Source: Escherichia coli (lineage in GTDB: Bacteria > Pseudomonadota > Gammaproteobacteria > Enterobacterales > Enterobacteriaceae). Taken from it: a stretch of 64,000 nt of DNA. Numbering within the stretch: the first letter of the stretch is position 1; every line of letters begins with the position of its first letter. The stretch lies in the NCBI RefSeq assembly GCF_003334335.1, contig NZ_QOWQ01000017.1; one strand, given 5' to 3'. The notes beneath the pieces are model-generated. The model had not been told where the DNA came from and searched no databases. It worked only from the letters and a program-made list of their open reading frames with translations. Positions 40,361-45,634 of this stretch are shown one piece after another. The position numbers were made by a program, and so were the translations under genes.

Positions 40361-40374
40361 TTGATTTTAATCAG
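40361..40374 (+). promoter_or_regulatory. FNR-like site TTGAT-N4-ATCAg upstream of dcuC
   Basis: 9/10 match to FNR consensus TTGATnnnnATCAA about 95 bp upstream of the dcuC start; dcuC is known to be anaerobically induced via FNR. Confidence 0.45.
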
Positions 40375-41889: not shown

Positions 41890-42570
41890 TCACCCACTGT
41901 GGTATATGCGTTGTGGTCTGCCAACTTTGCCGTGAACAATTTCAGCAATAATCAGATGGCGGCTGGCGCAATATTCAAGATAACGCCTGGCAGTGGTGCG
42001 GCTGATGGTCAGTGCCTGCGCCACCGTTTCTGCCGTATGTTGCACACCAGGCTCTTTAAACAGTTTTCGCACCGCGTTTAGCGTCAAGGGGTCAATGCCG
42101 GTCGGTAGCTCGTCCTTAGGTTCACCGCGAGCATAAGCATTAAACATCTCATCAATTTGCTTCTGGCTGGCGCTATCAATACTTTCCAGCATATGTTTAC
42201 GCTGGCGGAAACGGGTTAGCGTTTGCCCCAGCCGTTCATAGGCAATGGGCTTAATGAGATAATCAAATACACCACAACGTACGGCTTCAGACACCGTTTC
42301 CATATCGCTGGCTGCAGTGGTAAACACCACGTCGCCGGGATAATGCGCCTGCACCAGTTCATGCAGTAAATTAATCCCTCTACCGTCAGGAAGATAGTTA
42401 TCGAGCAAGATTAGCCCCGGCTTAAAACGCTCGATCATCATTCGGGCCTGCGCCAGATTTCCCGCCAGTAATATCTGACTGAATCCGGGAATGTGACGAA
42501 TATATTCCGCATGCATCTCTGCCAGCGGCGTTTCGTCCTCAACGATCAATAGGGTTAATGGAGCTGTCAT
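41890..42570 (-). CDS. dpiA: two-component response regulator DpiA (CitB)
   Basis: 226 aa; receiver domain followed by HTH output domain. Confidence 0.92.
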   Translation of the reverse strand: MTAPLTLLIVEDETPLAEMHAEYIRHIPGFSQILLAGNLAQARMMIERFKPGLILLDNYLPDGRGINLLHELVQAHYPGDVVFTTAASDMETVSEAVRCGVFDYLIKPIAYERLGQTLTRFRQRKHMLESIDSASQKQIDEMFNAYARGEPKDELPTGIDPLTLNAVRKLFKEPGVQHTAETVAQALTISRTTARRYLEYCASRHLIIAEIVHGKVGRPQRIYHSG

Positions 42571-44197
42571 TAGGTTTCACTTTCGGAATATAGATTGAAA
42601 ATAAGGTACCGCAGGGATCATTATCTTCGAGAGTGATAACACCACCGCAGCGCGTTACGTAGCTGGCAATCAAGTACAACCCAATGCCATGTTCACCGGG
42701 CTCGTCAGCACGCGTACTGACCCCCTGCTCAAATATTTTGTCTCGTAGAGACTCTGGAACGCCGCAGCCCTGATCGGCGACTTCAATCACCACATCATCG
42801 CCTTCATCGCTGAGGAATAATTCAACGATCTTGTTTCCTTCATCGCTACGCAGGCTGGCTTCGAAGGCGTTATCAAGTAAATTGCCCACAATGGCTGCAA
42901 ACTCGGTGCTATCCAGTCCTGGCGGCAGTTGCGAAAGCTGGCTACCGGGGACAATGATCATTTTTAGCCCCAGTTCCCGGGCGCGCTGCACTTTACCAAA
43001 AAGCAGCCCCGCCACCTGGCGATCGGCAAACGCCTCGCGCAGGCTGTCAATAAGCTGTTGCTGGGCCTGAGACTCCCCCTGCACCATCGCCAGCACGCGA
43101 TCATACTCTTTCATCTGCAACAGACCATTGAGCGTCGACATCCAATTGAGATGCTCGTGTCGCAATGTACGAAGGCTCTCAACGTATTGTTTTATTTGCG
43201 TCAGTTGCGCATTGAGGGTGGAAATTTCGTCTTTACTACGAAAGCTGATAATGGCCCCCAGCAAATCATCACCTGAACGAATAGCTTCCCGGTTGGCAAT
43301 AACGCTCAGACCGTTAAAGTTCGCCACCACATCCTGACGTTTTTCATCAATCTGTTCGGTAAAGAAATCGGCGGGCCTGACCACTTCAACAATGGGTTTA
43401 CCCAACCATTGCCGTCCGGGGGAACTCAGCCCCAGCATCTTTCTTGCGTTACGATTGATGGCGGTAATGTAACCATGCGGATCCACCGCAATCAGCCCTT
43501 CATAAACCGAACTAAACAGCGCCTCTTGCTGACGGACCACGCGTGCGATTTGCTTTGGCTCCATGCCCATCATCTGCCGACGGATATGCGCGGCCAGGAA
43601 CCACGACAGCAACATCAGAATCCCTAACAGCACGACAAACACACCTGCCATCGGTAATAAAAACTCAGCCCGCCAGCTATCGATTTTACTCACCAGGTAG
43701 CCAATCGACACCACGCCGATGACTTTTCCATCGTCATCAAAGATTGGCGTTTTGGCGCGCATCGCCATCCCCATTGACCCTTTCCCGGTAATGAAGTAGC
43801 TCTCCCCTTTCTCCAGCGCGCCCTGTTTGGTGAACTGCATAGGATAACCAATTTTCTCCGGATTAGGATGGTAAAGGCGGATCGAGTGCCGGTCCCCAAT
43901 CACCACATAATCAAAATCGGTATCTCTTTGTAATTTGTTAGCGATGGTCGCCAGCCGTTTGTAGTCACGCGTTTTCACCGCAGAGATGACACTGTCATTG
44001 GAGGCAATAATTTTCGCCTGATTCATTGCCATGTCGCGTACATGAAGCGTTAAATAGTCCTCAAAACTGGCCGTAAAATATTGCGCCAGGGCTGCAATGA
44101 CAAATATTGAGAACACCAGAATCAGCAAAAAGATACGCAGCGGAAATGCCAGTCTTTGGAAAAATGCAAACTGTTTATTCTCGTTAAGCTGCAACAT
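42539..44197 (-). CDS. dpiB: two-component sensor histidine kinase DpiB (CitA)
   Basis: 552 aa from ATG with aaggaaaa RBS; two TM segments flanking periplasmic domain, H-box (LRHEHLNWMSTL) and HATPase; 32-nt overlap with dpiA. Confidence 0.92.
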   Translation of the reverse strand: MLQLNENKQFAFFQRLAFPLRIFLLILVFSIFVIAALAQYFTASFEDYLTLHVRDMAMNQAKIIASNDSVISAVKTRDYKRLATIANKLQRDTDFDYVVIGDRHSIRLYHPNPEKIGYPMQFTKQGALEKGESYFITGKGSMGMAMRAKTPIFDDDGKVIGVVSIGYLVSKIDSWRAEFLLPMAGVFVVLLGILMLLSWFLAAHIRRQMMGMEPKQIARVVRQQEALFSSVYEGLIAVDPHGYITAINRNARKMLGLSSPGRQWLGKPIVEVVRPADFFTEQIDEKRQDVVANFNGLSVIANREAIRSGDDLLGAIISFRSKDEISTLNAQLTQIKQYVESLRTLRHEHLNWMSTLNGLLQMKEYDRVLAMVQGESQAQQQLIDSLREAFADRQVAGLLFGKVQRARELGLKMIIVPGSQLSQLPPGLDSTEFAAIVGNLLDNAFEASLRSDEGNKIVELFLSDEGDDVVIEVADQGCGVPESLRDKIFEQGVSTRADEPGEHGIGLYLIASYVTRCGGVITLEDNDPCGTLFSIYIPKVKPNDSSINPIDR

Positions 44198-44575
44198 TGT
44201 TTTCCTTGCGGGTTGTCCCGAGCCTCTTTGACGGATGTAATTAAAATGTTGAATCAAAATACATAGATATTAATTATGATCGTGGCAAATTTTATTCATT
44301 AAATCAATTAAATCACTTAAACCTGCGAGTCATTTCGTAATTACATTAATTAAAAAACTTAAAATCATTAAATAAATAAAAAACCACTAACTCTATGTGA
44401 AATAAATCAAAATTTCACGCCGAAATACTCCTTAGGATGTATAGCGAAAGGAGAAAAAGATATACCTCGATCACCCCCTTTCTCCCAAGTGAAAATAAAA
44501 GGTTATCAGTTTGCAACATTGAACAACATTCGTTGCAAATCGATAACAACATGCACCTTCAGGATACTATTTATT

Positions 44576-45634
44576 ATGTTCGGCAATGATATTTTCACCC
44601 GCGTAAAACGTTCAGAAAATAAAAAAATGGCGGAAATCGCCCAATTCCTGCATGAAAATGATTTGAGCGTTGACACCACAGTCGAAGTATTTATTACCGT
44701 AACCCGCGATGAAAAGCTTATCGCGTGCGGTGGAATTGCCGGAAATATTATTAAATGCGTTGCTATCAGTGAATCCGTCCGCGGTGAAGGACTGGCGCTG
44801 ACATTAGCCACTGAATTGATAAACCTCGCCTATGAGCGGCACAGCACGCATCTGTTTATTTATACCAAAACCGAATACGAGGCGCTGTTCCGCCAGTGCG
44901 GTTTTTCCACGCTGACCAGCGTACCCGGCGTGATGGTGCTGATGGAAAACAGCGCCACGCGACTGAAACGCTATGCCGAATCGCTGAAAAAATTTCGTCA
45001 TCCAGGGAACAAGATTGGCTGCATTGTGATGAACGCCAATCCCTTTACGAATGGTCACCGTTATCTGATTCAACAGGCTGCGGCACAGTGCGACTGGTTG
45101 CATCTGTTTTTAGTCAAAGAAGATTCTTCACGCTTCCCCTATGAAGACCGGCTGGATTTGGTGTTAAAAGGCACCGCCGATATTCCACGCCTGACTGTGC
45201 ATCGTGGCTCCGAATACATCATCTCCCGCGCTACGTTCCCTTGCTACTTCATTAAAGAACAGAGCGTCATTAACCATTGTTACACCGAAATTGATCTGAA
45301 GATTTTCCGTCAGTACCTCGCTCCCGCGCTGGGTGTAACTCACCGCTTTGTCGGTACTGAACCCTTTTGTCGCGTTACCGCCCAGTACAACCAGGATATG
45401 CGCTACTGGCTGGAAACGCCGACTATCTCCGCACCGCCCATCGAACTGGTTGAAATTGAGCGGCTGCGTTACCAGGAGATGCCGATATCCGCTTCCCGGG
45501 TACGTCAACTGCTGGCGAAAAACGATCTCACGGCTATCGCGCCGCTGGTCCCTGCAGTCACGCTGCATTATTTGCAGAACCTGCTTGAGCACTCCCGCCA
45601 GGACGCGGCAGCTCGTCAAAAGACCCCCGCATGA
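44576..45634 (+). CDS. citC: [citrate (pro-3S)-lyase] ligase
   Basis: 352 aa from MFGNDIF; ORF-track 29-codon upstream extension rejected. Confidence 0.9.
   Translation: MFGNDIFTRVKRSENKKMAEIAQFLHENDLSVDTTVEVFITVTRDEKLIACGGIAGNIIKCVAISESVRGEGLALTLATELINLAYERHSTHLFIYTKTEYEALFRQCGFSTLTSVPGVMVLMENSATRLKRYAESLKKFRHPGNKIGCIVMNANPFTNGHRYLIQQAAAQCDWLHLFLVKEDSSRFPYEDRLDLVLKGTADIPRLTVHRGSEYIISRATFPCYFIKEQSVINHCYTEIDLKIFRQYLAPALGVTHRFVGTEPFCRVTAQYNQDMRYWLETPTISAPPIELVEIERLRYQEMPISASRVRQLLAKNDLTAIAPLVPAVTLHYLQNLLEHSRQDAAARQKTPA

Follow-up and report, generated by a model that had tools for sequence, protein, structure and literature searches.

A conserved TGTGA-N6-TCAA dyad and an Escherichia-confined palindrome in the dpiB-citC spacer of Escherichia coli

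Described citrate-lyase promoters and the dpiB-citC spacer

Sites for CitB and for CRP have been reported in the citS-citC spacer of Klebsiella pneumoniae, where they activate both promoters. CitB footprints in K. pneumoniae cover long A+T-rich regions, and both CRP sites of the spacer are reportedly centred at -41.5, with CRP binding stimulated by CitB. At class II CRP promoters, galP1 being an example, a CRP dimer at -41.5 replaces the -35 element, and -41.5 is also the usual centre of the sites from which FNR activates. For E. coli, citCDEFXG is described in RegulonDB-derived text as regulated by ArcA, Crp, DpiA, FNR and NarL, and DpiAB, NarL and cAMP-CRP have been given as regulators of PcitC (PMC12405535). 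A binding site for DpiA (CitB) lies 190-280 bp upstream of the citC ATG, according to Scheu et al. 2012 as cited in PMC10610042. The architecture of the citC promoter is ordinary and largely catalogued, its regulators DpiA, CRP, FNR, ArcA and NarL having already been described for E. coli, and the arrangement of a CRP-type site over the citC -35 region appears to have been catalogued as well. With the Klebsiella counterpart dissected more than 20 years ago, the gain from the present analysis is mainly a tidier annotation.

We analysed a stretch of 64,000 nucleotides of an E. coli contig (NZ_QOWQ01000017.1 of assembly GCF_003334335.1), referred to here as the window, in which dpiB and citC are transcribed divergently (Table 1). 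Between their start codons (dpiB ATG at 44197 on the minus strand, citC ATG at 44576) lies a spacer of 378 bp (44198-44575) with a G+C content of 31%, as AT-rich (69% A+T) as the first-pass annotation of this DNA had described it. Positions published in older MG1655 coordinates were converted with a 778-bp offset, checked against the FNR site of dcuC. The 501 bases around the palindrome discussed below match 5420 of the 5426 complete E. coli genomes in RefSeq, where dpiB and citC are the annotated flanking genes.

The E. coli and K. pneumoniae systems have in common their dependence on CitA/CitB, upstream CitB sites that are rich in A+T and, nearer the promoter, a dyad of the TGTGA type. They also have the same order of blocks, TAATTAA ... 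AAAACCATwAA ... TGTGA. In the K. pneumoniae spacer (L086), TGTGACTTAAATACAA faces citC and lies 34 nt after an AAAACCATAAA block, the corresponding distance in E. coli-type loci being 35 nt, and a near-consensus TGTGATTATCTTCACT faces citS, with TACTAT at +38. No dpiB-facing counterpart of this citS-facing CRP site was found in the E. coli spacer. The loci differ further in gene content (citS-oadGAB-citAB in K. pneumoniae, dpiBA in E. coli), in their CitC proteins, which are 51% identical, and in the right half of the citC dyad, which reads TACAA in K. pneumoniae and TCAAA in E. coli.

Table 1 Features of the dpiB-citC region and of the neighbouring dcuC control site, in coordinates of the window
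Feature	Coordinates	Strand	Basis and remarks
dcuC FNR site, TTGATTTTAATCAG	40361..40374		90 bp upstream of dcuC; differs from the FNR consensus at one position
dpiB (citA), sensor kinase	42539..44197	-	Open reading frame, translation MLQLNENKQ..., RefSeq; divergent from citC
Published DpiA (CitB) interval	44296..44386	none	PMC10610042, citing Scheu 2012
CRP/FNR-type dyad TGTGA-AATAAA-TCAAA (TGTGAAATAAATCAAA)	44396..44411	+	Centre 44403.5; comprises the left arm and spacer of the palindrome; MG1655 652,021-652,036 (U00096.3)
Palindrome GTGAAAT-aaatcaaa-ATTTCAC	44397..44418	none	Read directly; 7-bp arms, 8-bp spacer, 22 bp
Right arm ATTTCAC, Escherichia-specific	44412..44418	+	Predicted promoter position about -33 to -27 (-35/spacer region)
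NarL-like 7-2-7 element TACTCCT-TA-GGATGTA, tentative	44426..44441	+	Overlaps the predicted -10
Predicted -10 hexamer of the citC promoter, TAGGAT	44433..44438	+	Predicted from its fixed phasing with the dyad
Predicted citC transcription start region	44444..44447	+	Predicted from the -10; near MG1655 651,987; 5'UTR about 130 nt
citC, [citrate (pro-3S)-lyase] ligase, first gene of citCDEFXGT	44576..45634	+	Open reading frame, RefSeq

The palindrome and the DpiA region

The first-pass annotation had singled out a perfect 7-bp inverted repeat, GTGAAAT-N8-ATTTCAC, at 44397-44419 and had proposed this symmetric site as a candidate operator. The sequence is as described, although the end coordinate was one base too far. 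GTGAAAT occupies 44397-44403, aaatcaaa 44404-44411 and ATTTCAC 44412-44418, placing the repeat at -179 to -158 relative to the citC ATG, and the pairing extends neither outward nor inward. Within the dpiB-citC spacer it is the sole perfect 7-bp inverted repeat with 0-12 bp between the arms. As a statistically unusual feature the palindrome could be ruled out, since 45% of dinucleotide-preserving shuffles of the spacer hold at least one repeat of this kind (17% when each arm is to contain at least two G/C), and 112 such repeats occur in the 64-kb window. A second copy, which would have been a sign of a regulon, was sought throughout the window, including ybdO, and none with fewer than two mismatches was present; the best other matches have two mismatches and lie in unrelated places. 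A hairpin, cruciform or terminator was also rejected. The single-stranded DNA, with a 7-bp A+T-rich stem and an 8-nt loop, folds with only -4.5 kcal/mol, the palindrome lies upstream of the predicted transcription start, and a terminator scan was empty.

For comparison we gathered 80 loci encoding CitC relatives, one genome per species, of which 78 were usable upstream of citC; about half of the 80 have a divergent dpiB and a spacer of similar length. Among the 60 loci that carry the dyad of Table 1, all seven arm pairs are kept in only five, all of them from Escherichia (L001-L005), so that across orthologous spacers the arms are neither conserved nor co-varying. The remaining dyad loci keep between 0 and 6 pairs, with 5 in the commonest form, ATTTACC. 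The equivalents of the right arm in other genera are ATTTACC, ATTTATC, AATTACC or unrelated sequence, and in an anchored alignment the information content per column drops from 1.1 bits to about 0 over the seven positions of the right arm. The palindrome is largely coincidental and restricted to Escherichia; the left arm belongs to a deeply conserved regulator site. From the alignments, the right arm appears to be an Escherichia CA/AC difference from the ATTTACC of sister genera that mirrors the left half-site by chance, and no role is demonstrated for the 7-N8-7 symmetry itself. What survives of the operator proposal is that a conserved element of CRP/FNR form overlaps the repeat. It would be a mistake to read the eye-catching palindrome as the operator; the unit of function would instead be TGTGA-N6-TCAA, at a predicted position of about -41.5.

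The full palindrome could still be the operator of a regulator found only in Escherichia, for example the LysR-type YbdO/CitR or YbeF, both of which have a reported effect on citC expression. Within the genus its perfect symmetry is invariant, from the E. coli lineages and cryptic clades to E. whittamii and E. albertii, and variation sets in with the 4 nt directly 3' of it; deletion of citR raises citCDEF expression. However, the invariant Escherichia block is 70 nt long (44350-44419), so the invariance of the right arm says nothing specific to that arm, and the frequency of equivalent palindromes in shuffled spacers and the lack of a second copy in the window, at ybdO as elsewhere, tell against an operator as well. 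No CitR ChIP-exo peak has been reported at citC, and the even spacing of the repeat is unlike the T-N11-A LysR box. We consider an Escherichia-specific operator extremely improbable.

DpiA had been suggested in the first pass as a protein that might bind the palindrome, and repeated ttaaatca motifs had been noticed in the same spacer. The motifs form a direct-repeat family (44291-44321, 44333-44363 and 44342-44372) that falls in the published DpiA interval, and it is these upstream ttaaatca repeats that should be regarded as the DpiA sites. Conserved blocks in the interval are TTAAATCAATTAAA (44299-44312) and TAATTAAAAAACTTAAAAyCATTAAA (44347-44372), and the most conserved blocks upstream of the dyad are TTAAATCAATTAAA and TAATTAA..AAAT.AAAACCATTAA. 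The suggestion for the palindrome itself is not supported: in the description of the DpiA site that PMC10610042 takes from Scheu 2012, the bound interval stops 10 bp short of the palindrome, which at 44397-44418 lies outside it.

A reporter construct points the same way. A Citrobacter rodentium PcitC sensor deprived of its 'DpiA operator sites', which were placed by alignment with EcoCyc, lost its response to citrate (PMC12405535 and its preprint). In this construct, DTR305, the forward primer anneals at CATCTAACTCTTTGTGAAATAAATCAAA, a sequence present verbatim in four Citrobacter loci of our comparison set. Because DTR305 starts at CATCTAACTCTTTGTGAAATAAATCAAA, just left of TGTGAAATAAATCAAA, the dyad was kept in the construct that did not respond. 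A construct that carries the dyad and is not induced by citrate places the dyad outside the annotated DpiA operators and indicates that it is not sufficient for citrate induction.

These observations also bear on whether the dyad or the palindrome might be an additional DpiA (CitB) site close to the promoter. In ATAAATCAAAAT, the spacer of the palindrome, the TAAATCAA motif of the upstream DpiA region recurs; it is found at 44300-44307 in the DpiA interval and again at 44403-44410 in the palindrome, and the palindrome has in common with the DpiA operators annotated in EcoCyc and Scheu 2012 its location in the same spacer, its adjacency, its A+T-richness and this octamer. The published interval ends at -190, about 10 bp before the palindrome, which is retained in the construct without DpiA-dependent induction. 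Moreover, distant genera have unrelated, G+C-containing N6 sequences (ACAGGT and GCAGAT) while TGTGA and TCAA persist, so that the conserved contacts are the half-sites and not the A+T-rich centre. An additional DpiA site here is in our view very improbable.

An amoxicillin-selected E. coli variant is reported to have a single mutation, the loss of 1 bp at 193 bp upstream of citC (PMC10610042). This corresponds to position 44383 (MG1655 652,049), in the A-run 13 nt left of TGTGA, and would bring the proximal DpiA block one base closer to the dyad. Where PcitC is used as a citrate or gut biosensor, the segment 44296-44445 is the part to be left intact.

The conserved dyad and the predicted geometry of the citC promoter

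When 24 Enterobacteriaceae spacers (from Escherichia, Citrobacter, Salmonella, Intestinirhabdus, Enterobacter and Hafnia) were aligned with MAFFT without an anchor, TGTGAAATAAATCAAAA proved nearly invariant and the right arm of the palindrome changed outside Escherichia. TGTGA-N6-TCA occurs within 420 nt upstream of citC in 60 of the 78 usable loci. The remaining 1.01 Mb of the same loci contains it 15 times on both strands, a background of 0.006 per 420 nt. The N6 differs by genus (AATAAA, AATATA, AACAGT, AGCAGA, ATCAGG or AATAGG) and the half-sites are fixed, the pattern expected of a dimer that contacts two half-sites. The left half is of CRP type (GTGA) and the right half of FNR type (TCAA). 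An anchored alignment of 29 representatives with less than 80% mutual identity, in which the TGTGA and TCA columns are invariant by construction, has an A after TGTGA in 28 and an A after TCA in 25, these columns being unforced. By hand count, the right half is TCAA in 53 of the 60 loci and TCAC in only 2. Pantoea, Erwinia and Providencia have ATGA as their left half (ATGA-N6-TCAA), and the Moellerella dyad, TTGAA-ATAG-GTCAA, is FNR-like in both halves. On this comparative evidence, the conserved element is best taken to be the dyad TGTGA-N6-TCAA, and not the palindrome.

The dyad keeps a fixed distance to a hexamer resembling a -10 element. In 22 of the 29 representatives the distance from the T of TGTGA to TAnnAT is exactly 37 nt, and in 27 it is within 1 nt of this value; at none of the other offsets from 18 to 61 does the score exceed 2. 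The hexamer is TAGGAT in the window and TACGAT, TAAGAT, TATGAT, TACTAT or TACCAT in other genera. With its centre 29.5 bp before this predicted -10, the dyad would sit at -41.5 for a start near 44445, and the fixed phasing has the geometry that a class II site for a CRP/FNR-family activator, centred near -41.5, would be expected to show. A scan of 44150-44650 with the sigma-70 consensus found no promoter with two good hexamers and no recognizable -35, as expected for an activator-dependent promoter, for which such a scan is uninformative. A full-text literature search for the sequence of the site gave no match, and a search for a paper giving '-41.5' returned nothing relevant.

The predicted citC 5'UTR yielded no conserved RNA structure. 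It contains a 16-nt inverted repeat (44502-44517, GTTATCAGTTTGCAAC, and 44532-44547, GTTGCAAATCGATAAC; 88% complementary) that is restricted to Escherichia and has a fold z-score of -1.2, and the blocks GTTATCA, CAACA and ACAA are kept across genera in the 24-spacer alignment.

In L024, L029, L031 and L033, a same-strand gene for a DcuC-type transporter precedes citC in place of the divergent dpiB; TGTGA-N6-TCA(T/A) is kept there with TACGAT or TACCAT at +37, 86-99 nt from the ATG. The Vibrio loci (L069-L077) have TATGA-N6-TCAT about 90 nt upstream of citC with GATAAT at +37, which is the geometry of E. coli with half-sites that fit the discriminating base of neither CRP nor FNR. In Klebsiella spallanzanii (L067), citC lies behind a same-strand transporter gene and the locus was uninformative.

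Candidate regulators of the dyad

We favour, with moderate confidence, the view that the dyad is a site for a CRP/FNR-family dimer, most likely cAMP-CRP, in a class II position at about -41.5, acting together with phospho-DpiA. The dyad TGTGAAATAAATCAAA agrees with the CRP consensus TGTGA-N6-TCACA at nine of ten positions, and only 3 matches of this quality occur in the window on both strands, against 1.9 expected. The mismatch is at the C of TCAC, a base that is read by CRP. In common with class II CRP promoters, the citC promoter has the site centre 29.5 bp before a -10-like hexamer, no recognizable -35 and a nine-of-ten match to the consensus; it differs from them in the conserved A for the C of TCAC, and in that its predicted CRP site is accompanied by a need for an upstream response regulator.

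The arrangement suggests how the promoter could work. A CRP/FNR-family dimer, most likely cAMP-CRP, would bind 44396-44411, about 41.5 bp before the citC start, and would make contact with RNA polymerase at the -35 region of a promoter with TAGGAT as its -10 and no usable -35. Its partner would be phospho-DpiA (CitB), which binds the A+T-rich repeats at 44296-44386 (about -59 to -149) and without which there is no induction by citrate. One consensus half-site and one sub-optimal half-site for CRP would fit a weak site in need of help from DpiA, and the CitB-stimulated binding of CRP that is said to occur in Klebsiella would explain a CRP site that is deliberately weak.

Several points speak against CRP. 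The conserved TCAA is sub-optimal for this protein and would not be predicted by simple drift of a CRP site, and in the ATGA forms of Pantoea, Erwinia and Providencia, as in the Vibrio forms, the G read by CRP on both halves is missing. Neither citC nor dpiB appears among the targets of CRP genomic SELEX in the available portions of Shimada 2011 (text and supplements). CRP is nevertheless the best-fitting candidate, given the consensus match, the naming of CRP among the citC regulators and the CRP and CitB sites reported in Klebsiella, with FNR as the main rival on account of the FNR-type right half. The first-pass suggestion of a global anaerobic regulator was right in direction, in that the conserved dyad has the form of a CRP/FNR-family site, although CRP is favoured over FNR.

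The dyad could alternatively be a class II FNR site at -41.5, through which FNR would provide oxygen control while DpiA conveys the citrate signal. The half nearer the promoter is a perfect half-site for FNR (ATCAA, or TTGAT on the other strand), with the discriminating A in 25 of the 29 representatives, and in Moellerella both halves are FNR-like. With class II FNR sites such as that of dcuC, the citC site has in common the TGA-N6-TCA core, the typical -41.5 position and an anaerobic physiology. FNR is also among the regulators of citCDEFXG in RegulonDB-derived text, and the operon is induced anaerobically (PMC12405535). Against these stands the left half, which is GTGA and not TTGA, its CRP-type G being kept in 60 loci. 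As a whole, GTGAA-ATAA-ATCAA matches TTGAT-N4-ATCAA at eight of ten positions, and the window has 52 places that are equally good or better, where 35 are expected, so the dyad does not exceed background as an FNR consensus site. In addition, the equivalent K. pneumoniae dyad has TACAA and not TCAA as its right half.

Genome-wide binding data are also negative for FNR at this locus. Myers 2013 reports no FNR ChIP-chip or ChIP-seq peak between fepB/entC and dcuC/pagP, and neither a site predicted by position weight matrix nor a peak from the hns/stpA mutant is named citC or dpiB. The dcuC site 4 kb away was detected in that study while citC/dpiB was not; TTGATTTTAATCAG coincides with the dcuC/pagP FNR peak and thereby served as a positive control for the coordinate conversion. 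The cultures of Myers 2013 were grown in glucose minimal medium without citrate, and citC, citD, citE, citF, citX and citT showed oxygen-dependent expression only in the hns/stpA mutant (fold about 0.2-0.27; Table S11). With citrate absent and the oxygen response of the cit genes seen only without hns/stpA, FNR occupancy could have been masked. Even so, we regard a class II FNR site here as unlikely. The same expression data suggest that H-NS silences the A+T-rich cit control region; H-NS and IHF coordinates were checked in the supplements of Myers 2013 and gave no usable match.

The hybrid composition, CRP-like on the left and FNR-like on the right, may itself be the point, with a single site at -41.5 that either protein could use through one good half-site. 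CRP and FNR have reportedly been described as able to recognize hybrid and heterologous sites. Across Enterobacterales both discriminating positions are conserved, each in the opposite 'flavour' to the other, and CRP and FNR are both named as regulators in RegulonDB-derived text. The pattern is not kept in K. pneumoniae and Vibrio, though, and the FNR ChIP lists and the accessible part of the CRP SELEX lists are both negative at citC/dpiB. We judge such dual use decidedly unlikely, and rate no higher the broader proposal that both halves are under selection across Enterobacterales and the site is either used in this way or read by a third, uncharacterized protein of the CRP/FNR family. Dual use, if true, would bring carbon and oxygen status together at the citrate-lyase promoter; a third family member would account for the ATGA...TCAT versions of Vibrio as well. 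The conserved 'half CRP, half FNR' composition is the small point of interest that remains beside our preferred reading of the dyad as a weak CRP site.

A NarL-like element overlaps the predicted -10. Compared with TACYYMT-NN-AKRRGTA, its left heptamer is perfect and its right heptamer matches at 5 of 7 positions, a quality found 3 times in the window against 3.1 expected, and its conservation does not reach beyond the closer genera (Escherichia, Citrobacter, Salmonella and Hafnia). Repression of citC by nitrate and NarL has been reported (PMC12405535; NarL is also named in RegulonDB-derived text), and the element may tentatively be matched to it.

Two further observations concern dpiB and its upstream region. 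A sigma-70 ChIP-seq peak with altered aerobic/anaerobic occupancy (651,824 in the older MG1655 coordinates; Myers 2013 Table S2) maps to about 43830, some 370 bp into dpiB, with about 615 bp separating it from the predicted citC promoter. ArcA was set aside as a candidate, no peak in Park 2013 (text and supplements) being named citC or dpiB. At 44236-44252, about 40 bp before the dpiB ATG, the sequence TGTAATTAAAATGTTG is conserved in 24 of 24 close spacers. It resembles the direct-repeat box of ArcA, TGTTA-N6-TGTTA, and could alternatively be part of the dpiB promoter or the DcuR site reported upstream of citAB.
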